Below are positions 3,018-61,851 of a stretch of DNA of 64,000 bases, one piece after another. This DNA comes from a virus, in IMG/VR virus record IMGVR_UViG_3300043185_000079; one strand, 5' to 3'. Below the pieces are notes generated by a model, which had not been told where the DNA came from, did no database searches, and saw nothing but the letters and a program-made list of their open reading frames with translations. Each line of letters begins with the position of its first letter. Positions within the stretch are counted from its first letter, which is position 1. The translations under genes and the position numbers were made by a program.

Positions 3018-3251
3018 GTGGGCGTGGGCGTCCGGCGGTATCGCGTCAAGTTTGCGTTCCATGACGCGGAGGGGGTTTACCAGACCAAGACAAAGGAGTT
3101 CACGTCCCTCCGTGCCGCCGGGGAATTCGTGAGGGACCGGCCCGACCCCACGGACTTCCTAGAAATACGGGCAGTCAGCTACGAGACCTTGACCGACCAG
3201 GAACGAGAGATATTCGTCTTTTTCACCGAAGGGAAAGCCCATGCTCGTTAG
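3018..3251 (+). CDS. small hypothetical protein
   Basis: Coding-like 3' part of ORF 2904..3251; start uncertain. Confidence 0.5.
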   Translation: MGVGVRRYRVKFAFHDAEGVYQTKTKEFTSLRAAGEFVRDRPDPTDFLEIRAVSYETLTDQEREIFVFFTEGKAHAR

Positions 3252-3260
3252 GGCTTCTAT
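3247..3260 (+). promoter_or_regulatory. class III motif GTTA-N6-CTAT (putative late promoter)
   Basis: Ends 15 nt before ATG 3276; the same GNTW-N6-YTAT pattern recurs at 8794, 17654, 21057(-), 34385, 36766, 40945, 41042, 46606 and 61393, with near-matches at 22666 and 21578(-). Confidence 0.6.
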
Positions 3261-3275
3261 GAGGAAGGCCGTGGC

Positions 3276-4397
3276 ATGAGCCCGCTCGACGCCGTCATCC
3301 TTCGCCTTGCGCGCCACAACAATGATTTCCGCAAGGCACTTCGCGAGGAGATCGCGAAAGCTGGGGCTCGAAACGTTCAGTCCAAGCTGACAAAACCGCA
3401 GGAAAAGATCCTAGCAAAGTACATGGAACAAGGGGGCAGCGCGCAATTTTTCGATGATCTGCCCTCAGCCGTGCAGGCGAGTCTGCGGCGTCTGAAGGAT
3501 CAGGAAACGCTGCACATGGACGCGGACAGATGGTTGTCGGATGCGAGCCTGCGGCGTCGGGCATCCGAGGCGTTTCGTCCCCCCAAGGGAATCGCGGCAG
3601 CAGTTCATGACGGAAAATTGCCTGCTCAAGTTCTGCTGATCTGGAAGTACGTCGCCGAGAAGATGGGAGACCACTTCGACTACAGCGGTGCCGTGTCCTA
3701 CTGGAGGGCGAAGTGCAAGAAGGAGGGGATCGACCTGCCCCCCGAGTTCATCACGGGCCTCGGGGGCAAGGGCGTCACGGCGAACTTCCCCCACAAGACC
3801 GGCGAGCAGATCGAAGACTGGGTCCGCGCGAGACTCAAGAGCGAGGGTCTCATCGCCGAGGCGGGCCAGACGGCGGCCGAGATTGGCCTGTCCATCACGA
3901 GCATCGAGCAGAAGATCCGCGAGGCGAAGACCCGCGTCGAGCAGCACATGCGCGGCATCGAGATGGGCGAGAAGGTCACGCAGCGGAAAAAGTGGCTGGC
4001 CAAGGCGCAGGAGGAACTCGTCGCGCTGGAGCGGCAGCTCGAGGAGGCTCGCCGCGGAGTCACCGTCATCGAGGAGGCAGCCCAGCGTCACGAGGACCAC
4101 CACGCGCCCAGCGTATCATTCGAGGAGCAATTCCAGAAGCTGCTCGCGGAGGCGACGAGGGAGATGTCTCAGCAACAAGTGCTGGACAAGGTGCTCCGCT
4201 CGCTCGCCGAGTTCAACGCTGGGCTCAAGGCTGCCGAAAGCTCCGCGCGCGTGGCAGTTCTCGGAGATCTCTGGGGCGTGCTGGAGCGTGTGTGGGACAA
4301 GATCAAGGGTGTTGTGGCCAGCATCGGCCGGTGGGCGAAGGGACTCTTCTCCTCGGCCACGAAGCTCAATGACCTCCTCGACAAGGCCGGGGCTTGA
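3276..4397 (+). CDS. modular coiled-coil protein with N-terminal ILRLA..DFRKAL motif (putative virion-internal protein)
   Basis: 373-aa ORF with strong codon bias; its N-terminal motif is shared with 8826 and 42309. The function is an inference. Confidence 0.6.
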   Translation: MSPLDAVILRLARHNNDFRKALREEIAKAGARNVQSKLTKPQEKILAKYMEQGGSAQFFDDLPSAVQASLRRLKDQETLHMDADRWLSDASLRRRASEAFRPPKGIAAAVHDGKLPAQVLLIWKYVAEKMGDHFDYSGAVSYWRAKCKKEGIDLPPEFITGLGGKGVTANFPHKTGEQIEDWVRARLKSEGLIAEAGQTAAEIGLSITSIEQKIREAKTRVEQHMRGIEMGEKVTQRKKWLAKAQEELVALERQLEEARRGVTVIEEAAQRHEDHHAPSVSFEEQFQKLLAEATREMSQQQVLDKVLRSLAEFNAGLKAAESSARVAVLGDLWGVLERVWDKIKGVVASIGRWAKGLFSSATKLNDLLDKAGA

Positions 4398-4483
4398 CGT
4401 CGCGTCCGGTCTCGGGTAGAACCCACAGGTCGGCACGGTGCCGGCATCGATCCCCGACCCACGACCACGAAAGGAGCCAAGCG

Positions 4484-4540: not shown

Positions 4541-4597
4541 TCCAGGCCGAGACCTCGACACACGCCAAGCAGCCCGCGGAGCGGCCCTGACTCACTC

Positions 4598-4684: not shown

Positions 4685-4688
4685 CCGA

Positions 4689-6973: not shown

Positions 6974-8431
6974 GTGCTAAACTACCGAAATCTCGTGAAG
7001 AAGTCGCGCCACTTCTATCTCCACCCGGAGACTAACCCAGGGAAGGTCGCTGCCCTGGAAGCCCTCCACGCCGAGTACGTCAAGTACGTTCGCATCTGCG
7101 TGCAGACCATGATCGACAACCAGAGGCTCAATCTCAAGCGGTCCGAGAAGCAGGCCTTCTTCCAGAAGTCTGAAAAGCTCACGAGCCAGATCCAGAAGAA
7201 CGCCCGCGACCACGCCATCCAGATCGTGAGTACTTGGGCCCAGGCCACCTACGAACGCGCCATCAAAAAGCACCTCACCCAACTCCACAGGTTCGGCCAG
7301 GTCTCCCAGGAGGAACGTCATGCCCTCTGCACCGTGGGAAAGCACCTGATCTCCAATCCCTGGAAACATGTCACCCGGGAGGCCATCGACACCTACTGGT
7401 CCCTCCTGCTCGACCCGGAGATCTCTGGCAACCCTCCCAAGGTGTCCGACCGCATCCCCATGCGGATGTCGGAGAACACCTGCATGCTGGCCGACGCCGA
7501 CGAGGCCGTGGTTGCCCCCATGTGGATCAAGATCTCCACGCTGGCTTCCAGGAAAGTCGTTTGGCTCCCACTCAGTGGAAACCCCTACGTCGAAAAGGCC
7601 GACGACGTGAGCAAGGGAGTTCACGCTCGGAAGGACAAGAGGGGACGCTGGAGGTTTGAGGTCGTCGAGCGCAAGGAGTGGGTCGTCCCTGAACCTCAGC
7701 CAGACGCGCCTAAGATCGGAGTAGATGTCGGTTTGAACGTGGTCACGGCTACATCGGACGGCCGGACGTTTGGTAAAGAGTTGAAACCTAAGTTCGACAA
7801 GCTCTACGAGCGAGTCAGGAATCTCCGGGCGAACCGTCAACGTCAAGGATTGAAGGGGAACAGCCCAAGGCTCGACCGTCTTGAAGACAAGCTCACCGGG
7901 ATGGTGAAGACGATCGCCGGAGAGGTGGCCAACAAACTCGTCAAGAGCGCGCCAGAGGGCACGGTGTTCGTGATCGAAGATCTCGACCTTCGTGGGTGTC
8001 GGGGCCAAAAGAGGTTTGCGTACCGGGCCTTGGCCCGGAGTTTGGAGACGAGGGCGCCGGTGATCAGGGTGAACCCGGCGTACACGTCCCAATGCTGTCC
8101 CTCCTGTGGCTACGTCAGCCGGTCCAACAGGAGGGGAACCGATTTCGTCTGCCGTTCATGTGGCAGGCGTTCTCACGCCGACGTGGTGGGAGGGATCAAC
8201 CTGCTGAGACGTTCTCAGGACGAACAGGTTGGTCTTGGAGATCACCATCGAGACGTGAGGGAGTTGCTGCGAGCGCGATTCCGACTTGCCCGTCAGGGCA
8301 TGAGGACCAGTTCCGCAGGACTGAAAACCGCGCCTGTACCGTCAGGCCGGAGGCTTACTACCGGAGCATCGCCGTCATGGCGGGGCCGGCACAGCCTCGA
8401 ATCAGGAACCCAAGTTTTCCCAAGTTCCTGA
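6974..8431 (+). mobile_element. tnpB: IS200/IS605-family TnpB (RNA-guided endonuclease), no adjacent tnpA
   Basis: RuvC-I IGVDVGLN, RuvC-II FVIEDL, VNPAYTSQCCPSCG, FVCRSCG, HAD...INL; lower GC than the flanks; imperfect hairpin at about 6914-6942 resembles a left end. Confidence 0.92.
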
Positions 8432-8448: not shown

Positions 8449-8829
8449 GTGCAGAGATGCCCCGCGTGCAGGAGAGATCAGCCGGTCGACATGTTCCGCG
8501 GGGAGACGTGCTCGGAGTGCTGGGCACGCCTGCCTGCGACCATCCGGGTCGTCGTTCCCCAGGATTGGCAGTCTGATCCGCGAGGTCTGCCGGAGATGCG
8601 GGCCGACGTCGACGACGAGGCGTGGACCGCCTCGCGCGGAGCCTGGACGCTTGAGGTCCGGTGGAGGGGGAAGCTCGCGGTCTACGAATGCCGAGCCCTG
8701 CGGACGGGAGATCCGGTGGCGCCCCAGGTGGCCAGCCTCGCCTACCCCCACGAGGTGCTCGACTGGATCGGGGCCTGGCTGAGACAGGCGGCCGGTAGCG
8801 GGCCTATGGGCTCCCCGCAGGCAGGATGA
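8449..8829 (+). CDS. Zn-ribbon hypothetical protein
   Basis: GTG 5 nt after GG-TAACGT; CPAC...CSEC. Confidence 0.7.
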   Translation: MQRCPACRRDQPVDMFRGETCSECWARLPATIRVVVPQDWQSDPRGLPEMRADVDDEAWTASRGAWTLEVRWRGKLAVYECRALRTGDPVAPQVASLAYPHEVLDWIGAWLRQAAGSGPMGSPQAG

Positions 8830-11269: not shown

Positions 11270-11309
11270 GGGAAGATGCTGGGGCTCCGCGATAGGGAGG
11301 CTAACGTTC

Positions 11310-14106: not shown

Positions 14107-15750
14107 TCAGAAGCTCACTTCGACGAGATAGCGAATCCGCTGGCGGTTGACGTTGAAGAGCACGTGCTCGTCATTCTGGACAGACGTGTGTTCTGGATAC
14201 GCGGCGATGCTGTCGTGTCCCGCGGGACAATCGGGGACGCTCCACATGGTAGATTTGGCCATGTAGGGCTTGCCCATGATCGCATCGCACAGGAACATGA
14301 AAGCTCCGCGCCCACGGATGGCACCTGACGATGACGAGTAGAGAGCCTTCGGGGAAGAGACATAGCCAGCACTTTTGCCGCGGTCGGTCGCCGCGTACCA
14401 GCCCGCTCCGAAGGCCGATCCCGTGATGTGCACGCCCTTGAGCGCCTTCGGGAGCCGGAAGTTCGTTTGCATGATCGGAGCAATGTTGACCGAGCGCGTT
14501 CCGTGGATCGCGAGGAACGCGTTCGCATCTCCGTACCAGTCGCCGATGTCCGAAGTGTCGGGGCGACTGCGGGGTTGGAGTCGGGCCTTCTCGAGGCGAT
14601 TTCCCTTGCGGAGGCTTGCAACCTGCCTGATCTCGTTCACGAACAGGTCGTCGACCCGAGGACGCTTGACGGAGAAGATGTTGTGGACCGTCCACCTCTC
14701 GCGCAGGTGTCCGTGGCGATTGTTCGTCATCGACAAGTACGAGTCATAGACCCACTTCCCGAGACCGTTCTTCTGATCGATCCACTCGATCTCGGCGTTG
14801 AGCACTTCGCAGGGGTCCAGCTCGTCGTCCTTCCGCTCCTCGACGTCGAAGTCCTCGTTGCGCAGGGCGGCCTCAAAGGCGTCGAGGTCCTGCTGGATCG
14901 AGAAGATGTTGTTCTGGCTCAGGAGGACCGCGCTGGGATCTCCGTTGCGAGGGATGGGCCGCGGCACGATGGTGGCCACGTAGGTCGAGAGCTGCTGGAG
15001 CCGCTTGTCCTTGAGCTGGGCTTCCTGGTCGGGCCCGATCTTGGCGAGGAGCGTCAACGCGTCCGGGATCAGCTTGTCGCGGACCTCCTCGATGGCCGAC
15101 ATCGTCGGGACGATGCCGGTGCTCTGCTGCGCGGCTCGGGCGTAGTCCTGCGTGCCGCCGACCAGCGCGCGTGCGAGCGCGACGACCTGCGGCTGCGCGT
15201 CCACCCTTTTGCGGGGCGTCGCCTTCTTCTGCGCCTTCTTCTCCGGGGCGCTCGCCTTCTTCGCCACGCCCTCGTCGTCCTTGATGAGGTAGGCGTCGGG
15301 GAGCCCCCGCTCGCGGGTGGCGAGACGCTGGATGACGTAGCCGTCCTTGCCGGCCTTGCCGACCCACAGCGTACTCGACCCGACCTTCTTCTGCTCCAGC
15401 CGCTTGACGTTCTTGTCGCGGCACTGCTTCTGGAAGAAGTCGCGCGCCTCGGCCTCGGTCGAACACTGGACGAACTGGAAGTCCTGGCCTCGGAAGCTGC
15501 CGTTCCAGCTCTTACCTCCGGTCACGCGGCCCCACTCCAGGTACACGAACCACTTGCCGGCCGAGGACACGACGCCGGCGTGGTAGTACTTGTTGTTGTT
15601 CGCGTCACCGAACTGGTTGACGCAGACCATGTCGGCGATCCCGACCTCTGAGCCGAAGTCGTCCTGGTCCTTGGCCGGACGACCCTGGTACTTGAACGAT
15701 GCCGGATCCATTTTCGACGGAACTTCCTTGCGACCGAGCTTCGTGGGCAT
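14107..15750 (-). CDS. WGR-domain PARP-like ADP-ribosyltransferase
   Basis: NNNKYY...EWGRV (WGR); catalytic HGTR, FGAGWY, KSAGY, MFLCDAIMG, GHDS, NDEH...RIRYLVE (H-Y-E triad); AGGAG RBS before ATG 15750. Confidence 0.9.
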   Translation of the reverse strand: MPTKLGRKEVPSKMDPASFKYQGRPAKDQDDFGSEVGIADMVCVNQFGDANNNKYYHAGVVSSAGKWFVYLEWGRVTGGKSWNGSFRGQDFQFVQCSTEAEARDFFQKQCRDKNVKRLEQKKVGSSTLWVGKAGKDGYVIQRLATRERGLPDAYLIKDDEGVAKKASAPEKKAQKKATPRKRVDAQPQVVALARALVGGTQDYARAAQQSTGIVPTMSAIEEVRDKLIPDALTLLAKIGPDQEAQLKDKRLQQLSTYVATIVPRPIPRNGDPSAVLLSQNNIFSIQQDLDAFEAALRNEDFDVEERKDDELDPCEVLNAEIEWIDQKNGLGKWVYDSYLSMTNNRHGHLRERWTVHNIFSVKRPRVDDLFVNEIRQVASLRKGNRLEKARLQPRSRPDTSDIGDWYGDANAFLAIHGTRSVNIAPIMQTNFRLPKALKGVHITGSAFGAGWYAATDRGKSAGYVSSPKALYSSSSGAIRGRGAFMFLCDAIMGKPYMAKSTMWSVPDCPAGHDSIAAYPEHTSVQNDEHVLFNVNRQRIRYLVEVSF

Positions 15751-15767
15751 GCGTTCTCCTGTGGCCC

Positions 15768-15793
15768 GTACGGGCTGGGCCATCGTTTTACAC
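15768..15793 (-). promoter_or_regulatory. class II promoter motif GTGTAAA-N14-CGTAC
   Basis: 17 nt upstream of the PARP ATG. Confidence 0.7.
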
Positions 15794-15953
15794 GACGGGG
15801 CGAGAGTTGTCCTCGCGATTATCAGGACTGGCCGCGCGGAGTGCGCCATCGCCGTCTGCGTAGAGGCATCATGCGGTCGCAAGCGCTAACGATCAGGACT
15901 GGGTGCGCCTCGCGAGCGAAGCCACTATCATGCTGTTTCCACGAGTACGCGCG

Positions 15954-16717: not shown

Positions 16718-16765
16718 GTCCCCTTCGGTATTTCTCCCATATAAATCCGGTAGCCGGAGGCATTC

Positions 16766-17536: not shown

Positions 17537-17748
17537 CTCGCGGTCGAGAAGGAGTTGGCCATCAAGGAGGCAGAGACTCGCCGCGAGATCGCGGACTGAG
17601 AAGGATGCCCTGGAGGCGAAGATTGCTCGGTGGCATGGTGATTTTCGCGAGACGGTTACGGCCCTATCAGGGACGATGAGTAGAGTCAGAGGGATCCCGG
17701 GAACCGGGATTCCAGCACCAGACGGCGAAGGCCAGAAGGTGACCCGCA

Positions 17749-21018: not shown

Positions 21019-21234
21019 GGGCTCTCTCGCAAGAGAGAGCCCTATAGACGGGTTAGCCTACGGAGCGGACAGCCCGCGAGGCATCTTTTCGACCTGTGCA
21101 CATCCCGTTCTCATCGTGATTGCCCCACTGCTTCATGACAGCGGCACATCTACCGGTTCGGGCTCGTCTATCGAGGCATTGATCGCGAATTGCTCATGCC
21201 CACTTGGGCTGCGCTATACGAGCGATGTCGTGTC

Positions 21235-21540: not shown

Positions 21541-21683
21541 GAGGCTCCTGTGGATCGCCCGTCTATCAAATAACTATCCGAGATGCTGTGTCCGGGAGAT
21601 AGGCTCGCTCGTGAAACGACTGGTCGCGACCGTGGACCGGGCACTCGCCCGCGTGTAAACGATACCAGTGCGGTTGGCGCCTC

Positions 21684-23821: not shown

Positions 23822-24925
23822 TCATGTTCCGGGTACGGGCGGCCGCGTGGCGACCTCGTGGAGGCGGGCCGCCAGGGTCTCCAGCGCCTCCCATCCCCAC
23901 AGGGGCGCTCGCGCGTCGTGAATGCGGGGAGCGATCTGCTCGACGACGGCTGCCGGGAACCGGTCCAGACCAACGTGAGCGCCCACGATGGCCCCTGCCA
24001 TCGCTGCGGTGGTGTCGGTGTCCCCTCCGACGATGATTGCCATCTCGATTGCCTTCCACACGTCGGTCGGATGGGCCATCACGCAGTAGAGGCTCCAGAG
24101 GACGGAGGACCGGGCCCACGGGCTGATCCCGTCCCACGACTTGTCGTCGCTCTCCTTGATCCACGCGAACACGTCGTCGCGTTCGTCCGGCGAACCCGGG
24201 CGCCTTCCGAGATTCCGCCGTCCGCCGAATACTCGTCTGGACAGGTCCTCTACGTCGATTGAGAAATCCTTGCTGCTGCGTGCCACGAACCTCGCTAGCC
24301 AGCTCCACCACCCCGGCTCGTGGGGGCCGCTGGTGCTCCTACTGGCGTTGAGGCACATGGCGGTCGCGACGGCAATCGTCACCGCCCCCGCGACCGACAT
24401 CTCAGCCTTGTGCGTGATCACGGCCTGGTCCACGGCGTCGACGATGAGCTGGTCCACGTCGTTCCATCTGAGAAGGCCAATGGGAGCGGCACGCATCGCT
24501 GCCCCGTTGCCCGCGGCGGGTGCTGGGAGTCCCGACTCCGACCACGGGACTCCTCTCTGTAGCCTGGTTGCGGCGATCTTCGTGGAGCGCCCGTATCCGA
24601 CGACGAGATCCTGTGCGAACGCCTTGGCGATCCTGGCCGCGAAGTCTTCCGCGACGAATGACCTCTCGCCCACGATGGACAGTGCGAGTTCTCGTGTCAA
24701 CTGTGTGTCGTCCGTGTACTGCCCGAAGAGTGCGCCGTGATGGTTCCTCTCGGCCGCGAAGTCGACCAGACGGATGAAGTACGTCGCGTAGTCTCTTGCC
24801 TCGGCCGCGGGCCTTCGCTCTGCCCAGGCACCGATAACATCTCCCAAGGCACAGCCCAAGATGCACCCCTTGAACTGTTCGACTCGCGGCACAGGGAGCG
24901 TGTCCATTTCGGCGGTCACGGGCAT
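23822..24925 (-). CDS. ADP-ribosylglycohydrolase (DraG/ARH family)
   Basis: G.ILG.ALGD, GQYTDDTQLT, GNGAAMRAAP, GGDTDTTAAMAGAIVGA. Confidence 0.95.
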   Translation of the reverse strand: MPVTAEMDTLPVPRVEQFKGCILGCALGDVIGAWAERRPAAEARDYATYFIRLVDFAAERNHHGALFGQYTDDTQLTRELALSIVGERSFVAEDFAARIAKAFAQDLVVGYGRSTKIAATRLQRGVPWSESGLPAPAAGNGAAMRAAPIGLLRWNDVDQLIVDAVDQAVITHKAEMSVAGAVTIAVATAMCLNASRSTSGPHEPGWWSWLARFVARSSKDFSIDVEDLSRRVFGGRRNLGRRPGSPDERDDVFAWIKESDDKSWDGISPWARSSVLWSLYCVMAHPTDVWKAIEMAIIVGGDTDTTAAMAGAIVGAHVGLDRFPAAVVEQIAPRIHDARAPLWGWEALETLAARLHEVATRPPVPGT

Positions 24926-25287
24926 CAGTTGGCCCTCCCTGCTCGCGGAGCGTTCGGAACGGGCACACCATTGACGTCGAGTGCGTGAAGGAGGAGCATG
25001 CGCATCTGCGGAGTGATGTGTTTCTTGAAGTTTTCCTTGATCTGCCAATCTGGCAATGTTTCTGCCTGCGTAGCGAGGCGTGTCCAGAGCACGGCGAAGT
25101 CCTCCATCCGCATCTTCGTACGACCGACCGACACCGAGAAGTCCTGTCCCATCCCGTTGACGGAGACCAGGAGATTCCCCTCGACGACGCCCACGTACAA
25201 GTTCTCGCTGGGGAAACCTAGATCCCTCATCATCTGCCATACGGCGAACGTCACCTTGATTTCGACGGGCTGAGAAAGCAGGTTCAC
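24925..25287 (-). CDS. hypothetical protein
   Basis: Overlaps both neighbours in the minus-strand operon. Confidence 0.7.
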   Translation of the reverse strand: MNLLSQPVEIKVTFAVWQMMRDLGFPSENLYVGVVEGNLLVSVNGMGQDFSVSVGRTKMRMEDFAVLWTRLATQAETLPDWQIKENFKKHITPQMRMLLLHALDVNGVPVPNAPRAGRAN

Positions 25288-34119: not shown

Positions 34120-34417
34120 CCGCGTCGACGTGCAGGCCGGTGCCGCCACCGATCTCACGGTGGCCTCGCGCTCTCCGGCTCCGGCCGTCGCCTTTCTCTA
34201 CCTGGCCTGGAAGATGGGCGCAGATCGTCGGGCGAAGCGTTCTCGGACGCGAGGGGCGGTTGTTCGACGCACAGCTAGTGGTCGATGTACGCCTTGGCTC
34301 AGCGGCACCAGTAGATCTCTGGATCCGTGCCTACGACTCTTATTCCTCGTGAATGGCGCCGGATTGCTAGAGAGGGCCCTCGGCGGTAATTGGCTTATCG
34401 GGGGCCAGATCGTGAGA

Positions 34418-36727: not shown

Positions 36728-36805
36728 TCTTCTGCGTTGGGGGGTGAAATAGGGGCGCTAACAGCGATAGTTCGCCTATGGGGGCGGGCCCGATAGGGTC
36801 CGCCG

Positions 36806-39356: not shown

Positions 39357-40749
39357 GATCATCGAGCGACCCGTCGTCTCGAGCCCGACGCATGAGGGAC
39401 TTCACGCGCTTGAGCGCGCCGGTGATTCTCTCCGTCTCCTCGATCGGAATGTGGTGTTCCTCGGCGATCTCGTCCACCGTCATCTCCTTGACGTAGCGAT
39501 CGACGAGCACCTGACGGTGCCACTCGACGTCCGCTTCATCACGGATCTCGCTGCACAGGACGCGCGAGATGCAGTCCAGGACGCTTTCCAGGTCCAGGTT
39601 CGCGCTGAGCGTACTCTCTGGGTTGAGACCATCGGTAAGGTACTCGATGGGGTCCGTGTTCGAGTCGTCCTCGCTATGCTCGGTGTGTGTGTACGACAGT
39701 CTTTGCTCTGATTCGTTGATCGTTCGAGGCACGACTTCGTGCGTCCAGTTCGTCGGGTCGTAGCTGGGGATTTCCCGCGGAGTGAGGGCTCCATGGAAAA
39801 CCCGGCATACGGGCTCGCGTCCATCGTTGCGGATCTCGCTGTAGGCTCCTCGACGCGCCCAGGCACAGATCTGGGAGGGCGCGGGACCTCGTCCATCGCG
39901 GACCCGTTCTTTCAGACCGTCTCGCTGGATGATTTTCTCGATCCAGCCCATCGCGTGGTCCTCGATTTTCCCGAGAGTCTCCGAGCGCGGCATCTTGGTC
40001 CGCAGGTGCATCGTCATGCGGCCGTAGATCCGGGAGAAGTGCTCGCCCAGGTAGCGCGCCGTCTCATTGGTGCCGCACGAGAGCACGATGCGTCCCTCGT
40101 ACGTCGGACACAGTGAGCGGGCCTTCTTCACCCCGTTGGCCGTCAGCTCCCACCCGCCCCGCTGAGATCCGCTGCACAGCGGGACGACATCCCCATGGAG
40201 TCCTCGAGTCTGGACATGCCAAGCGGCTTTGACGTCGCGTCGGGCGATGTCATCCGACTGGACCCCGAGAAGGCGAGGCGCGTCGGCGACGATGTGGTCG
40301 GGCCTCACGCTGACGTAAGGCTTGAAGCCCGACATCTTCCCGATGAGGTAGACCACAGGGTCCAGGTAGCGAGTGGCGCCGATTTCGACGGGACTCTCGT
40401 CGCGGAAGTAGCCATCCCACCGAGGGTACTTCTGCTGGACCTCGCGGGCAGCCGCGACCCCGGCCTCCGTCAAGCCCCACAGACCGGGAGCAGGAGCCGA
40501 ACACAGGCCCCACAGGTCCTTCAGCCACCGCCAGGCGAAGTGGACCTCGCGGTAAAGGCCAGGCGGGCTGTTGCCATGGAGCGGCCAGTCGGGGCGTCGA
40601 GGGTCGATCCCGCGCAACGCCAGGGCCTTGTCCCGTATCGCTCTCTGGTGGATCCCCACGTCTGAGCGGAAGTCGCTCGCCGTGCCGAGGAGATAGAGGA
40701 CGGGATCGTAGAAGTCGACGCCGCGTGGGCGTTCGGAGAGGTGCGCCAT
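39346..40749 (-). CDS. sigma-70/ECF-like factor with two N-terminal Mrr-like wHTH domains
   Basis: GLWGLTEAG and GGWELTANG wHTH ends; region-2-like IEDH...WARRGAYSEIR; region-4-like RQVLVDRYVKEMTVDEIAEE. Confidence 0.6.
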   Translation of the reverse strand: MAHLSERPRGVDFYDPVLYLLGTASDFRSDVGIHQRAIRDKALALRGIDPRRPDWPLHGNSPPGLYREVHFAWRWLKDLWGLCSAPAPGLWGLTEAGVAAAREVQQKYPRWDGYFRDESPVEIGATRYLDPVVYLIGKMSGFKPYVSVRPDHIVADAPRLLGVQSDDIARRDVKAAWHVQTRGLHGDVVPLCSGSQRGGWELTANGVKKARSLCPTYEGRIVLSCGTNETARYLGEHFSRIYGRMTMHLRTKMPRSETLGKIEDHAMGWIEKIIQRDGLKERVRDGRGPAPSQICAWARRGAYSEIRNDGREPVCRVFHGALTPREIPSYDPTNWTHEVVPRTINESEQRLSYTHTEHSEDDSNTDPIEYLTDGLNPESTLSANLDLESVLDCISRVLCSEIRDEADVEWHRQVLVDRYVKEMTVDEIAEEHHIPIEETERITGALKRVKSLMRRARDDGSLDDLMS

Positions 40750-41079
40750 GTTGTCCTCGCCTGGGCTCAAGAGCCGCAGCTAAGTGGGGTGCCGGTGTGC
40801 TCGGGTCCTGGACATGTCCTGAGACGGGCAGGTCAGTGGACGGAAGCGCGACCCTTCTACGGCGCGAGGTGTGGCCCTGTCAAGATTTCCGCAGCGATGG
40901 GCGTCAGCAGAACATTGGTGAGAGAAGTCCGTGGCTTGCGGTCCGATAGCTAAACTATTGGTGCCGAGCGGCCGGAAAGATTTTTCCTGTGGATAACTCG
41001 GGAGAGATCTCCCTTTGGTCGGACCGGGGTGCGGCCCCGTCGCTTATGCCTCTATAGGCGAGACTCAGCGGTGACCCCC

Positions 41080-42312
41080 ATGCCCGATTTTGCCGACCCG
41101 CTCGTGCGCCGCTACCTGCGAGCCGCCATCGAGCGGACCGCGCTATGGAACATGGACATGTTCGCGCGGCTGAGCGTGTTGGAGGGCGCGGCTGGTCGCA
41201 CGCCCGGTGAGTGGGTCCGCATGGGTGAGCGCGGGTTCGGGAAGGCGAAGGAGCACTTCGGGCCAGGCCTCGCCGCGGCCTGGTCGACCTCGGGGAACAC
41301 AGGGGTGTACGACGCGGCTGTCTCGTCGGCTGAGAAGACGCTCCGTAACGTGCCCGGGTTGGACGGAGCTGATCTCGTCCAGGAGATGATGGTGGGCTCC
41401 AGCAGCCCACGAGCGCCGAGCAATGGCAACGGCAAGACCGAACTCGTGGGTCCTCGAAGGCAACGGATCTTCTACTCCGTCGGCGAGACCGTCAAGAAGA
41501 TGGAGGGCGATGACAGGCTGCGATCGGGGGTCATCGGGCCCTCTCACCGCCACATCATCGCGGACATCCGACGCTGGGTACAGCGCGCGGCTCTGGATGA
41601 AATCGCGAGATGGAAGCGGCAACGCATCGTTCCGTTCAGCCCAGGGGAACCACAAGGACTGGATCCGCTCAGGACTCGAGGCGAGAGGATGACGGATGAG
41701 CAACGAGAGAACCTCGTGCTGCTCGCCCTCCGGAGTCCAGGGGGTCCCGGACGCATCGTGCAGGATGTCGTGGAGGAGTTGGTCGACCGGCGATTCCCAC
41801 CCGCGCAAGCCAAGATCGTACGGGCGTTCTTGGCGAAGATCGGCCAGGAAAAGCTGCGGTCCTCGGCCGAGATGGGGCGCCTGGTCAAGACTTTCGATCC
41901 GAACAAGTGGTGGACGCAGGCGTTCAACGTCGTTCGTCGCGAGATCATGGAAGAGATGGGCGTCTCGGCACAGCAGCTCACCAACGCGCTCGGAGGAGGA
42001 GCGAAACGCGTCTTCGACTTCATGCAGAAGGACGTGGGGCGCGACCCGAGGATCATCAAGATCGTCGAGAACCTCGGAGAGCAGATTGACCTGCTCGAGC
42101 CCGGGCTCGGCAGCAGGGTTGCTCGTTCGCGGGTGCCGGAGTCTCTCCCGGAGCACCAGCGCCCCGTGTCGCCCTTCTCGTCGTTGAGCAATTGGCTGGA
42201 GAAGGATGAGCACATGGAGTGGGGCACGCAGAGCAGTCCGCTCGCGCAGCCCTCTCGGGGCCCCGTCCCCTTGCGCGTGGCGTCTCGGTGGATTGCCGTT
42301 AAGAATCGTTGA
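41080..42312 (+). CDS. sigma-like protein flanked by LVRRYL..RTA leader and RVASRW tail
   Basis: Region-2-like GADLVQEM...WVQRAALDEIAR; HTH-like REIMEEMGVSAQQLT; GCTT-N6-CTAT upstream. The CDS is secure, the function tentative. Confidence 0.5.
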   Translation: MPDFADPLVRRYLRAAIERTALWNMDMFARLSVLEGAAGRTPGEWVRMGERGFGKAKEHFGPGLAAAWSTSGNTGVYDAAVSSAEKTLRNVPGLDGADLVQEMMVGSSSPRAPSNGNGKTELVGPRRQRIFYSVGETVKKMEGDDRLRSGVIGPSHRHIIADIRRWVQRAALDEIARWKRQRIVPFSPGEPQGLDPLRTRGERMTDEQRENLVLLALRSPGGPGRIVQDVVEELVDRRFPPAQAKIVRAFLAKIGQEKLRSSAEMGRLVKTFDPNKWWTQAFNVVRREIMEEMGVSAQQLTNALGGGAKRVFDFMQKDVGRDPRIIKIVENLGEQIDLLEPGLGSRVARSRVPESLPEHQRPVSPFSSLSNWLEKDEHMEWGTQSSPLAQPSRGPVPLRVASRWIAVKNR

Positions 42313-46599: not shown

Positions 46600-46706
46600 C
46601 ATGGCGTTAGGTCGCCTATATCCGAGGTCATGTTGCGCGCGCGCGGGACTCTCGTGACCTGCGCGCCGCGTATAAGCTCAACGGACCGCATCGGTCGAGG
46701 TCACGC

Positions 46707-49700
46707 ATGCTCGATTTTCACACCAATCACGTCGCAGTGCCCAAGGATCCAAAGACCGAAGCTGATCTTCATGACGACGGCGCCGCGATGAAAACGATGA
46801 GGCCATCTCCGAAGACATACAGCTACGACGAAGCGTACGTAGCTGCCCGCGAGGCCTTCGGTGGAGACGACTTGGCGGCAAGCACGTGGGTCACGAAGTA
46901 TGCGTTGCGCGACCTCAATGGTCAGATCATCGAGCGATCTCCCGCCGACATGCACCAGAGATTGGCGAGAGCTTTCGCGGCGATCGAGGCACGTTACCCG
47001 AACTCGATGTCGGAGGACGAGATCTTCGCGCTCCTCGCGGACTGGACGGTGGTCCCCCAGGGGTCGCCGATGAGCGGGGTCGGGAATCCGTACAAGTTCC
47101 AGAGCGTCTCAAACTGCTTCGTCGTCCCCTCTCCCGAGGATTCCTACGGAGGCATCCTCCTCGTTGATCAGCTCCAGGCGCAGATCATGAAGAGGCGCGG
47201 GGGTGTCGGCTTCGACGTGTCGACGATCCGCCCGAAGGGCTTGCCCACTGCCAACGCCGCGCACACCACCGACGGTATCGGGATCTTCATGGAGAGATTC
47301 TCCAGGACATGCCGCGAGGTCGCCCAGGGAGGACGGCGTGGCGCCCTGATGCTCACGTGCGACGTGCACCATCCCGAGATCCTCACGTTCATCCGAATCA
47401 AGAACGATCTGACCAGATGCAAGGCGTGTGGCCACGGCGAGCGCATGAAGGTCACCGGAGCGAACGTCAGCGTCCGCCTCACCGACGAGTTCCTCAATGC
47501 AGTCGAGCGTGGCGAGAAGTATCAGCAGCGCTGGCCCGTGGACCGTTCTGATGTTCCTTCCATCGAGAACTGGGTCGACGCCAGGGCGATCTGGGAGGAG
47601 ATCACGCAGAATGCCCGGGACAGCGCCGAGCCCGGCCTGCTGTTCTGGGACAACATTCTGCGCGAGAGCCCAGCGGACTGCTACGCGGACGTCGGCTACC
47701 AGACCACGAGCACGAACCCGTGTTCCGAGATTCCTCTCTCCCCGTGGGACTCGTGCCGGCTGATGGCGATCAATCTCTCCAATTTCGTGTCCGATCCGTT
47801 CACGGACAACGCCGACTTCGATTGGCGCAGGCTGTCTGAAGTCGCCAAGAGGGCGCAGCGGCTGATGGACGATCTCGTTGACATCGAGATCGAGCACGTC
47901 GATCGGATCCTGGCGAAGATCGACAGGGACCACGAATCTGAGGATGTCAAGCGTGTCGAGAGAGATCTCTGGGAGCGTATCCGTGAGACCGGAGTGAACG
48001 GTCGGCGGACCGGGCTCGGCGTGACGGCCGTGGGCGACACCGTCGCCATGATGGGCATGAAATACGGCAGCGACCAGTCGATTGACTTCGTCGAGCGCAT
48101 GTACCGGGCGCTGGCCGTCGCCGCCTACGAGGCGTCGGTGGACATGGCCAGCGAGCGGGGATGTTTCCCGGCCTACGCCTTCCGCAAGGAGGCTGGACAC
48201 CCTTTCATCGAGCGCATCCTGGACGCCGCGCCGCCCGAGCTGAGGGTGAAGTACGAGCGTCATGGCCGACGTAACATCTCGTGTCTCACGACAGCCCCGA
48301 CGGGCAGTGTCAGCATCCTGACCCAGACATCATCTGGGATCGAGCCGGTGTTCCGCGCCATGTACACGCGTCGGAAAAAGATCAACCCCAGCGACGAGGG
48401 AACGCGCGTGGATGATGTCGATGCCCACGGCGACAGATGGCAGCATTTCACCGTGAAGGAACACGGGTTCAAGCGTTGGCAGGACGTCACGGGGAAGACC
48501 GACGAGGACTTCGCAGAGAGTCCGTACGCAGGAGCACAGGCCGAGGAGATCGATTGGCTGCAGCGGGTGAGGCTCCAGGCAGCGGCCGGTCGATGGATCG
48601 ATCACGCCATCAGCTCGTGTCTGGTTGCAGGCGAGAGTTTGGTGTGGACCGACAAAGGACTCCTCGATATCGAGGAGCTGGCCGGACACGCGGAACGGGG
48701 ACAGTTCGCGCCCGTCGACATGCAGGTTTCGTCCATTAACGCCGCCGGGACCCCGGCGCAGATCTCTCAGGGTTTCAACAACGGCCTCGCCAGGGTGTTG
48801 AGGATCTCATTCCCGAACGGGTTTGAGATTTCCTGTACCCCCAACCACAAGCTCGTGGTTCTGGACGAGAATTACACGCAGGTCTGGAAGGAAGCTGCGA
48901 GTCTCCGGCCGGGAGACGTCGTGGTGGGCCGCAAGGGAATCAATCTGTGGAATGATGGCAGCAAGTGCCTGACTCGACTCGTCGGCACGCCCTTCCAGTA
49001 CGAGCACAGGACCAACGCGAAGGATGTCCGCATCCCGAAGGACATGACACCCGCGCTGGCGAGGCTTCTCGGGTACATGTGCAGTGACGGGTTCTGGTCC
49101 GAGAACTCGATTGGCTTGTCGCAGCAGCGCAACGATGCTGCGGAGGACTTCGCAGGTCTCGTGGGCGACCTGTTCGATCTTGAGGTCTCGGAGAAGAAAG
49201 ACGAGCGTGGCGATAACCTTTTCCAGTACGTCGCCAACTCGCGCGAGGCGGCGGCGTTCATGCAGTGGATCGGAATCCGGCATCACGATGATCTCGTCGT
49301 CCCGCTCGCAATCCGCAGGTCGGGGCGCCAGTGCGTCAAGGAGTTCATCCGCGGCTTGACTATCAATGGATTCGTGTCGAGAGACAGCCTCGGCATCACG
49401 ACCTCTATCTGCCTGCCATTCTTGCGACAAGTGCAGCAGCTCCTGCTGAACCTCGGGATCGAGGCCGGCATCGACCAGTGCGCGGAGGAAGACCTGCGGA
49501 TGCTGCCCGACGGTAAGGAGTACCGCTGCAAGGATGCGTGGGTGCTTCGCATCTCCCACTCGGAGGAGGCCGAACGCTTTGTTCGGCTCGTGGGCTCTGT
49601 GGAGGATAGCGAAGACAAGTTCCACCGGGCCTCGCGCCCCAAGTTCCACCGGGCCTCGCGCCCCAAGCTCTGCGGCGAGGTCCCCGATCACGGTCTGCGG

Positions 49701-50678
49701 GAGCGATTCAGGGACCTACACCTGGGGCACGTCCGGTCGAACCGCCTGTACGAGATCTTCCACTCCCTCACCTGTGCCGACAAGCGTGGGCGGTGGCTCA
49801 ACCGAGAATCGCTTCTGGAGATGGCTGACGTGGGGCTCGATGTGCCGCCGATCCTGCTCGATCCAACGTACGTCTTCCGTCCCATCAAGACAATCGAGGA
49901 CGGGGGGATCCGGCAGACCTTCGATGTCGAGGTCCCCGATGGACATGCCTACGTCGCAAACGGGATCATCTCACACAACACGATCAACCTCCCCAAGGAC
50001 GTGTCCACCGAGGTCGTCCGCGACATCTACACGACGGCGTGGAAGATGGGTGTCAAGGGGATCACCGTCTACCGCGACACAGCCAGGGACGGTGTGCTGA
50101 TCGAGAAGAAGTCGGAGTTCGTGCAGCACAGTGCTCCGAAACGCCCCGAGGTACTCCCGTGCGACATCCACCGCACGCGCGTCAAGATTGTCGAGGACCA
50201 GTACGAGGACTGGATCTTCTTCGTCGGACTGTACGACGGGAAGCCCTTCGAGATTTTCGGCGGGACCACGGAGAACATCGAGCTTCCGCGCAAGGTGGAG
50301 AGGGGCTGGATCGTCAAGAGAGCCTTCAAGACGGGCGGGAAGTACGATCTCTGTTACGGCGAATCCGACGATCCCTTCAAGATCAAGGACATCGTTCGGC
50401 AGTTTGACAACCCGGAGCGAGGCTGGGCGACTCGGATGGTCTCCTTGTCGTTGCGGCACGGGGCTCCGATCCAGTACGTCGTGGAGCAGCTCCAGCGCGA
50501 TCGGGCGTCGGATATGTTCGACTTCGCCAGGACGATGGCCAGGGTCCTCAAGCGCTACATCCCCGACGGATCGACTGCGTCGCACAACCTCTGTGCGAGC
50601 TGTGGCGCCGAGGACAGCCTGCGGTACCAGGAAGGTTGTCTTCTCTGCGTCTCGTGTGGATCGAGCAAGTGCGGATAA
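46707..50678 (+). CDS. nrdJ: class II (B12-dependent) ribonucleotide reductase with intein
   Basis: SNCF, GGVG, QGGRRGALM, EPGLLF, TNPCSEI, APTGSVS, SSGIEP, KGITVYRD, C-terminal Zn ribbon; the start may be 46788. Confidence 0.95.
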   Translation: MLDFHTNHVAVPKDPKTEADLHDDGAAMKTMRPSPKTYSYDEAYVAAREAFGGDDLAASTWVTKYALRDLNGQIIERSPADMHQRLARAFAAIEARYPNSMSEDEIFALLADWTVVPQGSPMSGVGNPYKFQSVSNCFVVPSPEDSYGGILLVDQLQAQIMKRRGGVGFDVSTIRPKGLPTANAAHTTDGIGIFMERFSRTCREVAQGGRRGALMLTCDVHHPEILTFIRIKNDLTRCKACGHGERMKVTGANVSVRLTDEFLNAVERGEKYQQRWPVDRSDVPSIENWVDARAIWEEITQNARDSAEPGLLFWDNILRESPADCYADVGYQTTSTNPCSEIPLSPWDSCRLMAINLSNFVSDPFTDNADFDWRRLSEVAKRAQRLMDDLVDIEIEHVDRILAKIDRDHESEDVKRVERDLWERIRETGVNGRRTGLGVTAVGDTVAMMGMKYGSDQSIDFVERMYRALAVAAYEASVDMASERGCFPAYAFRKEAGHPFIERILDAAPPELRVKYERHGRRNISCLTTAPTGSVSILTQTSSGIEPVFRAMYTRRKKINPSDEGTRVDDVDAHGDRWQHFTVKEHGFKRWQDVTGKTDEDFAESPYAGAQAEEIDWLQRVRLQAAAGRWIDHAISSCLVAGESLVWTDKGLLDIEELAGHAERGQFAPVDMQVSSINAAGTPAQISQGFNNGLARVLRISFPNGFEISCTPNHKLVVLDENYTQVWKEAASLRPGDVVVGRKGINLWNDGSKCLTRLVGTPFQYEHRTNAKDVRIPKDMTPALARLLGYMCSDGFWSENSIGLSQQRNDAAEDFAGLVGDLFDLEVSEKKDERGDNLFQYVANSREAAAFMQWIGIRHHDDLVVPLAIRRSGRQCVKEFIRGLTINGFVSRDSLGITTSICLPFLRQVQQLLLNLGIEAGIDQCAEEDLRMLPDGKEYRCKDAWVLRISHSEEAERFVRLVGSVEDSEDKFHRASRPKFHRASRPKLCGEVPDHGLRERFRDLHLGHVRSNRLYEIFHSLTCADKRGRWLNRESLLEMADVGLDVPPILLDPTYVFRPIKTIEDGGIRQTFDVEVPDGHAYVANGIISHNTINLPKDVSTEVVRDIYTTAWKMGVKGITVYRDTARDGVLIEKKSEFVQHSAPKRPEVLPCDIHRTRVKIVEDQYEDWIFFVGLYDGKPFEIFGGTTENIELPRKVERGWIVKRAFKTGGKYDLCYGESDDPFKIKDIVRQFDNPERGWATRMVSLSLRHGAPIQYVVEQLQRDRASDMFDFARTMARVLKRYIPDGSTASHNLCASCGAEDSLRYQEGCLLCVSCGSSKCG
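48618..49979 (+). mobile_element. intein (454 aa) with LAGLIDADG-type domain in nrdJ
   Basis: AISS|CLVAGES...TPNHKL...LLGYMCSDG...YVANGIISHN|TINLP. Confidence 0.95.
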
Positions 50679-59135: not shown

Positions 59136-59144
59136 AGGCCCACC

Positions 59145-61391
59145 ATGCACTTCGACGTCGACACCCACACGATCTTCCTCGGGGTTACCGGGTCGCACGC
59201 GTACGGCATGGCGCGGGCCGGCTCCGACGTCGACGTGCGCGGAGCCTGCATCCCGCCCCGGGAGGTACGGGACAGCCACTACAAGGTGTTTGAGCAGTTT
59301 CTCGTCCAACAGCAACGAGGGGCCTGGGGTCCCGGTCCTGCTGCGCAGGCGATCGAGAACATCCTTGCACACCCGACCGCGGGCGAGTCGTATCGCCAGA
59401 GCGACCCGGTCTTCCGTCGGGCAAACGGTGTGGTGGACCTCTGCATCTACTCCCTGGCCAAGCTCGTGGCATTGGCCGCCAACAACAATCCAAACGTCCT
59501 TGAGCTGCTGTTCCTGGACGAGCGTGACGTCCTCTACGCCGATGCCAAGTGGCGTCGTATCGTGGAGCATCGTGACATCTTCCTCTCGCGCAAGTGCAAG
59601 CACACGTACCTCGGGTACGCCCACGCGCAGCTTAAGCGCATCAAGGGGCACCGGGAGTGGCTCCTCAATCCGCCGACGACGGAGCCCACGCGGAAGGACT
59701 TCGATTTGCCCGAGGAGTCTGTGTTGCCCGCCGACGTTCGCAACCAGATTGACGAGGTTGTGAAGAAGATCATCGGTGGTTGGAAGGTCGACGACGGGCT
59801 GGATGTGCTGAGCGGGGCCACGCTGGACGTGCTCATGGGGAGGATGCGGGAGTTCCACGCGACGCTGCTGGCTTGCACGGATGACATGCTCGACGAGAAG
59901 GTCTACGAGCTGGGTGCCGCGAGCATCGGGTTGAGCAAGGACGTGCTCTACGCCATCCGGCAGGAGCGGCGCTACCGTGCCGCTCGCAAGCACTGGGAGC
60001 AGTATCAACGGTGGATCAGGGAGCGTAACCCGGCGCGAGCCGAGCTGGAGGCGAAGTACGGCTTCGACTGCTACTCGGCGGACACGCAGTTCTTGACCGA
60101 GAACGGGTGGAAGTGTTTCGACGAGATCCAGGCGGGGGAGAGGCTCGCCACGGTCCATGTTGGGCGCGACATGCCGCATCGGAGGTTCGGATCGCTGGAA
60201 TACCAGGCCCCGACAGAGAGGTTTGACGGCACGTTCACCGGCAACATGTACCACTTCGGAGGGCACAACACAGACGTGCTCGTGACCCCAAACCATCGGA
60301 TGCTTTATCGTCAGGTCTCGCGAAGAAGAGGCGAAACGTATGGTGTCGTGATGGAGGAGGCGGCCCGGATGCCCGACGCCTTCGACTTCGTGCGGACGAT
60401 CCGACCGCGCACGAAGACGTACGGCACGAGGAGGTTGTTCGCGGAGATCCCGATCAAGCCGGAGGCGTTTCTACGCCTGATGGGGTGGTATCTGACTGAT
60501 GGCTCCGCCAACATGCGGAAAGGGAAGCGGAGAACCAGCGTTCACGACGTTCGCGTCAGCCAGAAGAAGAACGGACGCTCTCACGGAGAGATGGTCAAGT
60601 TCCAGAACAGGTACGGTAAGGCCCTTCAGAGTTCGATGTACGCCTACGACAAGAAGGGTCTCTCCGGTGATCCGATCACGGAGATCGTCCTGTCGGTCCG
60701 ACACCGCGGAGTCTGTGAGAGAATCGTGTCCGAGTGTGGTCGCACCGACAACAAGCGTATCCCGCGGTGGGTGTTCTCGCTGTCCAAGAGACACATGGAG
60801 ACCCTGTTTGACGCGATGTGTGGGGGTGACGGCACAGTTAAGCGAAGCTGGATCTACTACTCCTCCTTGAAAGGACTCGCCGACGACGTCAATGAACTGG
60901 CTCTGCACTGCGGCTGGGAAACCTCTCTGTGGGGTCCGTACGCAATCCCTACCGACCTCAGTCCTGACTGTGTCATGTACCATGTTCACGTCGACAAGCA
61001 CGCGGAGGAGTTCCAGAGGTTCGTCAGGAACAAGAGCATCGATCTGAATCCGGTGAAGAACCATCGCATTGTATGCTTCACGGTTCCGAACGGCACGCTC
61101 ATTACCCGCCGCAATGGCCGTGTGGGCATCCACGGGAACAGCAAGCACGGCGCCCATCTGATCAGGCTCATGAGGACGGGGCACGAGATTCTCACCGAGG
61201 GCGTTCTCCGAGTACGCAGGCCGGATGCGGAGGAACTGCTGGCGATCCGAGATGGGGCGTTGAGCTACGACGAGCTGATCGCGGAAGCGGAGCGGATCGA
61301 GAAGGCGGTGCTCGAGGCCGAGGTATCTTCCAAGCTGCCCAAGGCGCCCCAGGTCGAGCGGATCGACGAGGTGTTGCTGTCGATCCTGTAG
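59145..61391 (+). CDS. RlaP-type (Pol beta superfamily) nucleotidyltransferase with intein
   Basis: GSHAYG....SDVDVRG, NNPN.LE.LF, GYA..Q, KYGFD|intein|SKHGAHLIRL. Confidence 0.9.
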   Translation: MHFDVDTHTIFLGVTGSHAYGMARAGSDVDVRGACIPPREVRDSHYKVFEQFLVQQQRGAWGPGPAAQAIENILAHPTAGESYRQSDPVFRRANGVVDLCIYSLAKLVALAANNNPNVLELLFLDERDVLYADAKWRRIVEHRDIFLSRKCKHTYLGYAHAQLKRIKGHREWLLNPPTTEPTRKDFDLPEESVLPADVRNQIDEVVKKIIGGWKVDDGLDVLSGATLDVLMGRMREFHATLLACTDDMLDEKVYELGAASIGLSKDVLYAIRQERRYRAARKHWEQYQRWIRERNPARAELEAKYGFDCYSADTQFLTENGWKCFDEIQAGERLATVHVGRDMPHRRFGSLEYQAPTERFDGTFTGNMYHFGGHNTDVLVTPNHRMLYRQVSRRRGETYGVVMEEAARMPDAFDFVRTIRPRTKTYGTRRLFAEIPIKPEAFLRLMGWYLTDGSANMRKGKRRTSVHDVRVSQKKNGRSHGEMVKFQNRYGKALQSSMYAYDKKGLSGDPITEIVLSVRHRGVCERIVSECGRTDNKRIPRWVFSLSKRHMETLFDAMCGGDGTVKRSWIYYSSLKGLADDVNELALHCGWETSLWGPYAIPTDLSPDCVMYHVHVDKHAEEFQRFVRNKSIDLNPVKNHRIVCFTVPNGTLITRRNGRVGIHGNSKHGAHLIRLMRTGHEILTEGVLRVRRPDAEELLAIRDGALSYDELIAEAERIEKAVLEAEVSSKLPKAPQVERIDEVLLSIL
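60069..61139 (+). mobile_element. intein (357 aa) with LAGLIDADG domain
   Basis: CYSADT...VTPNHRM...LMGWYLTDG...LFDAMCGGDG...CFTVPNG...HGN|S. Confidence 0.93.
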
Positions 61392-61404
61392 CGGTTTTTG
61401 GGCT

Positions 61405-61851
61405 ATGGCCCATCTAAGGCATGCCCACGACACCAGCACGGCCCGAGTCGCATTGGAAGGGCCAGCCAAACGGGCTGCCGGCGCCCATTTCGATACCGCC
61501 TTTGTGTGGAACGACTCTGGCAAGTGGCGCGTGGAACTCACCAAGTTCATCTCGGGCGGTGGCATTCAACTCGGCAAGGCGACAGCCTTGGCCAACACGC
61601 ATGTCAGAGAGGCGAAGGCTTTTGCGAAGGCTCTCGAAGCTGGTCTGAACGAACAGGCCCTTGAGGCAAAGGTTACCGTGCCCTCCCCAGACAAGGTGAC
61701 CATCCTCGGCGATCTGGATGGCGCCTTCATGGCCATTGATGTCGATCTTGGCTTCCGAGAAGCCTCCCCACACGCAGAGAAGGCCATCAAGTCTGTGGTC
61801 TCTGATCTGGGGATCCGCGTCCGGCGTTACCCAGAGCCGGGCAGCGGCTGA
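61405..61851 (+). CDS. hypothetical protein
   Basis: Fills the gap between the NTase and sbcD genes; start uncertain because the ATG overlaps a class III motif. Confidence 0.6.
   Translation: MAHLRHAHDTSTARVALEGPAKRAAGAHFDTAFVWNDSGKWRVELTKFISGGGIQLGKATALANTHVREAKAFAKALEAGLNEQALEAKVTVPSPDKVTILGDLDGAFMAIDVDLGFREASPHAEKAIKSVVSDLGIRVRRYPEPGSG

Follow-up and report, generated by a model that had tools for sequence, protein, structure and literature searches.

The window analysed here is a stretch of 64,000 nucleotides (nt) of viral DNA from the IMG/VR record IMGVR_UViG_3300043185_000079, in which a short bipartite motif, GNTW-N6-YTAT, recurs in front of genes. The motif is genuine and stands as a solid, conserved regulatory element. 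It is probably a promoter, and is likely to form the core of a phage-specific promoter that would not need a −35 element. An earlier note on the window had proposed a late promoter dedicated to the genes of proteins bearing the amino acid motif RVAxx[WFHY], a proposed packaging tag.

The motif is enriched upstream of co-oriented genes

The window has a GC content of 63%, carries about 70 genes and is 86% coding. The exact pattern, GNTWNNNNNNYTAT, matched 14 times, whereas 100 dinucleotide shuffles averaged 2.55 matches and never exceeded 8. Twelve of the 14 matches were located at most 120 nt upstream of the start of a co-oriented gene, a zone that makes up 6.6% of both strands (binomial p = 5e-13), which rules out that the motif is equally frequent inside coding sequences or on the antisense strand. 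These 12 sites, nine on the plus and three on the minus strand, were intergenic or at gene junctions, and each was directed at the gene that follows it on its own strand. The matches at 16754(−) and 22024(−) looked like chance occurrences. The distance from CTAT to the start codon was short at eight sites (15, 18, 19, 21, 22, 25, 26 and, depending on the start codon, 15 or 24 nt) and 81–97 nt at three. Bases outside the search pattern were also conserved: C occupied position −1 in 10 of the 12 sites, and the base that follows TA (+4) was a purine in 11. An unbiased scan of all dyads of three plus three bases upstream of genes returned TAG-N6-TAT among its top signals, with 6 of 9 occurrences upstream; the same scan also yielded GTA-N18-TAC, which corresponds to a separate motif described below (class II, TGTAAAA-N13-CGTAC), and GGGTAG. 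Canonical sigma-70 promoters and intrinsic terminators occurred at the level of shuffled sequence in the part of the window from 30 to 48 kb.

Architecture of the motif and predicted transcription start

To define an extended consensus, 26 sites from several lineages were aligned. The alignment gave C at −1, G at 0, T at 2, W at 3, Y at 9 and CTAT from 10 to 13, followed after one variable base by G at 15 (18/26) and S at 16 (25/26). In the wider clade the consensus became CGnTW-N6-YnATA, with CTAT, CGAT or CAAT as the second box. No −35-like block was found in the 26 aligned sites: between −2 and −20 no position reached 80%, the best being G at −4 in 16 of 26, and inspection by eye of the bases farther upstream, as far as −40, showed nothing in common. 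With respect to a TATAAT-like −10 element, the T-A at motif positions 2–3 could correspond to −12/−11, or TAT to −12 to −10, and the position matching −7 had no conserved T.

Of 28 site-to-start distances, 22 were 13–32 nt, and no site was closer than about 15 nt to the start codon. At both sites with a 15-nt distance, a run resembling a Shine-Dalgarno (SD) sequence began directly after CTAT. Two leaders contained strong hairpins (z about −4), at 21020–21043(−), 1 nt after CTAT, and at 36784–36805(+); such hairpins began 0–3 nt after CTAT. The orthologous leaders in the relatives L008 and L011 also formed hairpins, of different sequence, and an RNA hairpin shared by all sites after the motif was rejected because only two gene families have one. 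Finally, the divergent genes that start at 36727(−) and 36806(+) are separated by 78 nt, in which two copies of the motif are the only conserved elements. Because of this short divergent interval, the spacing of at least about 15 nt, the SD-like runs, the position of the hairpins and the frequent G, we placed the start site at or just after CTAT. Transcription would thus begin 1–2 nt after CTAT, probably at the frequent G, and leaders would be short, about 13–30 nt, with nothing in them but the ribosome-binding site. CGnTA, from about −15 to −11, would then correspond to an extended −10-like element, and CTAT, at −5 to −2, to the region of melting and initiation. A geometry with the T-A of the first block at −13/−12 or −12/−11 fits an extended −10-like block followed by an initiation-region block.

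Sites in the window and their conservation in relatives

We compared the sites of the window, which we call class III, with those of a close relative (L003/L008), syntenic with the window at 67–86% nucleotide identity, and of more distant relatives reached through the families of two window proteins of 413 and 474 amino acids (aa): L009, L011 and L012 (68% GC), as well as L014 (60% GC) and L013 (48% GC). G002, an IMG/VR genome of 230 kb (90% complete, 65.7% GC), is also syntenic with this phage. Orthologous sites were kept in L008, L004, L009, L011, L012, L013 and L014, that is, at GC contents of 48–68%, while spacers and flanks diverged; in L013 the spacers were AT-rich and the consensus positions unchanged. 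L003/L008 retained the sites before the orthologues of the genes starting at 8826, 11269(−), 17749 and 21018(−). The distant relatives retained the motif before a VP2-domain gene, before the 413-aa or polyprotein gene and about 90 nt before the ribonucleotide reductase gene.

On the left side of the window, the site CGTTAGGGCTTCTAT (3247–3260, +) lies 15 nt before the ATG at 3276 of a 373-aa coiled-coil-like protein, and its purine-rich, SD-like run follows CTAT directly. The next one, CGGTAGCGGGCCTAT (8794–8807, +), lies within the preceding gene, at its 3′ end, and is separated by 18 nt from the ATG at 8826 (332 aa, phrog_37844); it is preserved in L008/L003 and L004. The site 11305(−), CGTTAGCCTCCCTAT (11292–11305), precedes by 22 nt the ATG at 11269 of a 65-aa open reading frame (ORF), and its orthologue in L008 differs only at non-consensus positions. 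A weak variant with a CCAT box, CGGTATTTCTCCCAT (16728–16741, +), lies 24–25 nt before the ATG at 16766, and CGGTATCTCCTCGAT occupies the orthologous place in L008. CGGTTACGGCCCTAT (17654–17667, +), 81 nt before the ATG at 17749 (382 aa), has the L008 orthologue CGGTGACGGGCCTAT. The site 21057(−), GGCTAACCCGTCTAT (21044–21057), is 25 nt before the GTG at 21018 of a 260-aa protein with RVAVAH near its N-terminus; L008 retains the motif there, though its flanks cannot be aligned, with a different hairpin downstream. A one-mismatch variant with a TGAT box, GATAGTTATTTGAT (21565–21578, −), 24 nt before the ATG at 21540, is a weak member.

On the right side, CGGTAATTGGCTTAT (34385–34398, +) lies 19 nt before the ATG at 34418 of a 456-aa protein with a Fusello_VP2-like domain, and its orthologues precede VP2-domain genes in L013, L014 and G002. 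The divergent pair consists of TGTTAGCGCCCCTAT (36749–36762, −), 21 nt from the ATG at 36727 of a 103-aa protein that is HU-like in relatives, and CGATAGTTCGCCTAT (36766–36779, +), 26 nt before the ATG at 36806 of a 257-aa protein whose gene is followed by a peptidase C39-like gene. This back-to-back arrangement between the HU-like gene and the peptidase-C39 operon, with the two copies 3–5 nt apart, was found in L009, L011, L013, L014 and G002. The site CGCTTATGCCTCTAT (41042–41055, +) precedes the gene of the 413-aa protein, by 15 nt if this starts with the GTG at 41071 and by 24 nt if it starts with the ATG at 41080. The protein has a C-terminal RVASRW, and the orthologues of the site are CGTTTTCGCTTCTAT in L011 and L012 and CATTTTC..CTAT in L009 and G002. 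The site CGTTAGGTCGCCTAT (46606–46619, +) lies 87 nt before the ATG at 46707 of the intein-containing ribonucleotide reductase large subunit, and its counterparts are CGGTAGGGCTCCTAT in L011, about 90 nt before the reductase gene, and CGTTAGGCACCTTAT in G002. The last site, CGGTTTTTGGGCTAT (61393–61406, +), is past the stop codon of an RlaP-like gene, and the ORF that follows begins either at 61405, where it overlaps the motif, or at 61504.

All twelve sites that the earlier note had listed were recovered at their coordinates. Ten of them fit the pattern, whereas 22666 (GGGA) and 21578(−) (TGAT) depart from it, and 22666, which falls below the weight-matrix threshold, is unconvincing as a member. 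The list was also incomplete, since it had overlooked the good sites 11305(−) and 36762(−) and the weak but positionally conserved 16728(+). Its reading of the motif as a promoter agrees with the position and orientation of the sites, the divergent pair and the conservation down to 48% GC. A DNA search of a phage collection with 7.3 kb of the window gave no match, and the 413-aa protein gave nothing in a close-relative search of IMG/VR. LR745208 (485 kb, same capsid clade) was uninformative: a strict form of the motif matched 7 times there, against 2 times in the control, and the 413-aa protein has no homologue in it.

Association with head genes

In G002, scanned with a weight matrix built from other lineages, 17 matches exceeded 12 bits compared with 3.4 in Markov-shuffled sequence, about a five-fold excess, and 9 exceeded 14 bits compared with 0.8. 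About 14 of the G002 matches were intergenic and co-oriented, 17–46 nt before starts. Sites were found directly after the gene of a 203-aa sigma-4 protein, before a string of genes that includes the portal gene (phrog_16240) and directly after the portal gene. A further site heads a unit formed by a 217-aa gene and the gene of the major head protein (phrog_2522, E = 7e-50), and an intrinsic terminator closes this unit. Searches of G001 and G002 with the Pfam families Gp23 and Phage_sheath_1 were negative.

The capsid protein has 573 related loci in IMG/VR, on contigs of up to 619 kb. Sufficient DNA upstream was available for 68 of the capsid loci, and in these the best match on the coding strand was found about 740–860 nt upstream of the capsid gene, before the preceding gene. 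Twenty-one matches above 12 bits were on the coding strand and none on the other. G001 does not count as an independent lineage in this test, its capsid protein being 97% identical to that of G002. As a separate observation, the major head protein evolves unusually slowly within a very widespread clade: it is 89–98% identical across the IMG/VR contigs L030–L109, whose GC content goes from 36% to 66% and whose length reaches 619 kb, and the 97% identity holds between genomes of 619 kb (G001) and 230 kb (G002).

The scan for capsid and portal genes that the earlier note had called for was thus run on relatives, and it placed the motif at the head module of G002 and matches above 12 bits upstream of the capsid gene at 21 of the 68 loci. 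The claim of a late promoter gained in this way the sites after the portal gene and at the head of the major-head-protein unit, together with the related element before the capsid gene in IMG/VR contigs, but in the window the ribonucleotide reductase gene has the motif too. We propose that the promoter would drive mainly virion-associated, late genes, namely the head-module units and the genes of RVAxx[WFHY]-tagged, HU-like and VP2-like DNA-binding proteins, and a few further genes such as that of ribonucleotide reductase.

Association with RVAxx[WFHY]-tagged proteins

The RVAxx[WFHY] tag occurred 18 times in the proteins of G002, compared with 5.5 in shuffled proteins. It was present in 6 of the 15 first genes behind the motif and in 9 of the 304 other genes (Fisher p = 1.4e-5). 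The grouping of tag-bearing genes by the motif is therefore borne out in G002, while within the window (2 of 11 versus 2 of 59) it was not significant (p = 0.11). The motif is not dedicated to these genes, as had been claimed, because it also precedes the genes of ribonucleotide reductase and of the HU-like protein and small ORFs. The family of the 413-aa protein (41071–42312) forms the N-terminal module of longer proteins of 690–1717 aa in relatives (P0122–P0131) and has a conserved RVAxRxL at its N-terminus. The label 'sigma-like' for this protein is unsupported, no such similarity being detectable, and profile searches of PDB sequences with the 474-aa and 413-aa families returned nothing.

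Sigma-like proteins and other promoter-like classes

The window contains no polymerase gene and one sigma-like gene (39346–40770, −), which encodes the 474-aa protein, scores above the Pfam cut-off for Sigma70_r4 and has a host-type promoter of its own, TTGACA-N17-TAGAA. This promoter suggests a cascade in which the host sigma factor acts first and phage factors follow. The 474-aa protein is a candidate for the factor that confers specificity on one of the promoter classes of the phage, and that this class is the motif described here is only our inference. This phage is also present in JGI and Logan assemblies, and the gene table of one Logan contig places dnaX, a gene of 176 aa and the gene of a 203-aa Sigma70_r4_2 protein just beyond the window. 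The clade encodes several sigma-like proteins. No RNA polymerase β-like gene (PF00562) was found in G001 or G002, in contrast with the multisubunit β/β′ enzymes of phages of the phiKZ/AR9 type; the same search was positive in 14 of 14 control genomes, and very divergent homologues could escape it. Phage-G-type jumbo phages lack their own polymerases and sigma factors (PMC7824862), whereas the capsid-related clade studied here has sigma-like genes. We propose that the host RNA polymerase core together with a phage-encoded sigma-like factor would read the promoter.

Two further classes of promoter-like sequence were observed. Host-type promoters, TTGAC(A)-N17-(GG)GTAGAA, are present at 40855(−) before the 474-aa sigma-like gene, where the element is conserved in L009, and at 4394(+) before tandem tRNA-Tyr genes; GGGTAG is found at numerous gene junctions and might represent the local form of the −10 element. 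Class II, TGTAAAA-N13-CGTAC, is found at 676(−), 15768(−), 22265(+), 31356(−), 31398(+) and 59112(+), before PARP, AAA, VWA, RlaP-like and other genes and often 9–19 nt from the start codon, pointing to leaderless or near-leaderless transcripts; G002 has three intergenic sites of this class. Compared with promoters of extracytoplasmic function (ECF) sigma factors, in which an AAC-type −35 and a CGT-type −10 are about 16–17 bp apart, the layout of class II matches and that of class III does not.

Alternative explanations

Although we favour a promoter read by the host polymerase with a phage factor, the same layout could serve an unrecognised phage RNA polymerase, single-subunit or very divergent, whose recognition sequence would be an uninterrupted stretch of about 17 bp next to the start site, as for polymerases of the T7 group. 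The motif resembles the promoters of T7, SP6 and K11 (consensus TA-G/C, a spacer, CTAT at −5 to −2 and G at +1) in that the block ends with CTAT, a G follows two bases later (CTAT-n-G in 18 of 26 sites), a TA-purine stands upstream and there is no −35 element; it differs in a spacer between TA-R and CTAT that has one base fewer than in the T7 group, and in an upstream block that is CG-rich. A search of G001 and G002 for the T7-type polymerase family (PF00940) gave no match, and neither did the control genomes, so that this negative comes without a positive control. Set against such an enzyme, two relatives of at least 90% completeness matched neither PF00940 nor PF00562, and several sigma-like genes are found instead. 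Phage-G-type jumbo phages, moreover, have no polymerases of their own (PMC7824862). All this makes a phage polymerase unlikely. The motif could also be the binding site of a phage activator or repressor beside a weak promoter rather than a polymerase recognition element, a possibility that draws on its partial dyad symmetry (TAG-N5-CTA, with C at −1 mirrored by G at +15), on a nearly perfect palindrome at 40945 that is conserved without CG, and on the many helix-turn-helix proteins encoded in these phages. A symmetric operator was nevertheless rejected as the principal interpretation because the conserved positions in the 26 sites are asymmetric, the top ones included: G at 0 is mirrored by C in 10 of 26 and T at 13 by A in 3 of 26. 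Every good site is, in addition, directed at its own gene, divergent genes in five lineages have two opposed copies and not one symmetric site, and no further conserved promoter element is found alongside; we thus consider a transcription-factor site quite improbable. That 22 of 28 sites are 13–32 nt before the start codon, in the zone of translational operators, would suit a motif that acts in RNA, as a processing site or a translational operator in the 5′ untranslated region. Nevertheless, the distance is 80–155 nt at other sites, including the capsid unit, the sites share no RNA structure, they are conserved in sequence with no covarying pairs, and the 78-nt divergent interval would force either transcript to begin within the leader or coding region of the other gene. 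A role in RNA is accordingly very improbable.

Several points weigh against the promoter reading itself, or against parts of it. The phage is uncultured, and the start site, timing and factor of the promoter are inferred. Any sigma-like protein that would read the motif is putative, and the sigma-2-like ORF of G002 is a weak match (E = 6e-4). The window has no structural genes, the label 'late' comes from the relatives, and since the motif precedes ribonucleotide reductase, usually an early or middle gene, the promoter may not be strictly late. Several sites would have leaders of 80–155 nt. The dyad symmetry described above could be used by a dimeric DNA-binding protein as well, and the PF00940 negative must be read with its missing positive control in mind.

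Other elements and gene content of the window

At 40945–40958(+), 83 nt upstream of the site 41042, lies the near-palindromic element CGATAGCTAAACTAT, of which relatives retain ATAGCTnAACTAT but not CG; for this reason it may be a separate, palindromic element rather than a copy of the motif. It opens a region (40945–41030) that separates the divergent sigma-like and 413-aa genes. Here the near-palindrome ATAGCTAAACTAT precedes about 60 nt of conserved sequence with a perfect DnaA-box-like TGTGGATAA, the hairpin GGGAGAGATCTCCC and a T-run. The region is conserved in L009 and partly in L011, L012 and L014, and could act as a leader, encode a small RNA or be related to an origin.

The genes of the window belong to replication, nucleotide metabolism and conflict, and include RecD2, RecA-like, RlaP-like, methylase, TnpB-like and HNH genes, together with three tRNA genes. 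The ribonucleotide reductase large subunit (46707–50678, 1323 aa) contains an intein with a LAGLIDADG domain, whereas the gene at 15465–18032 of L011 (855 aa) is intein-free. A PARP-like ADP-ribosyltransferase with a WGR-like region (14107–15882, −), an ADP-ribosylglycohydrolase (23822–25240, −) and a NUDIX-NrtR-like regulator (26818–27576, −) are also encoded, and a TnpB/Cas12f-like gene with OrfB_IS605 and TNB domains (6974–8431) lies within the phage genome.

Comparison with known phage promoters and significance

T4 late promoters, TATAAATA, are used by the host polymerase with gp55, gp33 and the gp45 clamp. Like them, the motif is a short phage-specific element near the predicted start site, has no −35 element and would serve virion genes; as in T4, no polymerase of its own was found in the clade, which has sigma-like proteins, one of them small, limited to sigma region 4 and encoded next to a clamp-loader gene (dnaX). 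The sequences themselves are unrelated, CGnTW-N6-CTAT being bipartite and about 15–18 bp long. The capsid is of the HK97 type and related to that of phage G, not of the gp23 type, and no homologue of gp55 or gp33 was identified, the 203-aa sigma-4 protein and the weak sigma-2-like ORF of G002 being mere hints of such factors. Sigma-like proteins of other phages (phiEco32 gp36, SPO1 gp28 and gp33/34) redirect the host polymerase to phage consensus sequences in a temporal cascade. This phage resembles phiEco32 and SPO1 in having also a host-type class and an ECF-sigma-like class II, and differs from them in that class III has no −35-like block. The CGTTAG block is like the SPO1 late −35 (CGTTAGA) in its sequence alone, and it is 5 nt and not 17–19 nt from the second block.

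By major head protein, the nearest cultured relatives are Tunturiibacter phage Tunturi_5 (48% identical) and Bacillus phage G (38%). In Tunturi_5, CGGTGCCGGACCTATAG lies after a terminator, 95 nt before the unit of gp333 and the major head protein. The strict form of the motif was not enriched across the Tunturi_5 genome (8 versus 7 in the control), and the Tunturi_5 paper makes no mention of promoters or of sigma factors. A literature search found no published description of the consensus CGnTW-N6-CTAT. It is possible, although we hold it as a tentative and still doubtful proposal, that the motif represents a new −35-independent promoter class in a widespread clade of large and huge soil and freshwater phages (573 capsid-related loci, contigs to 619 kb), read by the host polymerase with a split or minimal phage sigma factor, made up of the sigma-4-only protein encoded beside the clamp loader and a region-2-like protein, and that it defines a regulon of virion-packaged, tag-bearing cargo and head genes.

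Through its sequence, the motif gives access to the transcription programme of a clade of large phages that are abundant but uncultured, and it would make the genes of virion and cargo proteins predictable from DNA alone. It also lends independent support to the proposed RVAxx[WFHY] packaging tag. The pairing of a new type of promoter with the unusual sigma-like proteins of the clade can be tested, and the cultured distant relative Tunturi_5 offers a route to the experiment.

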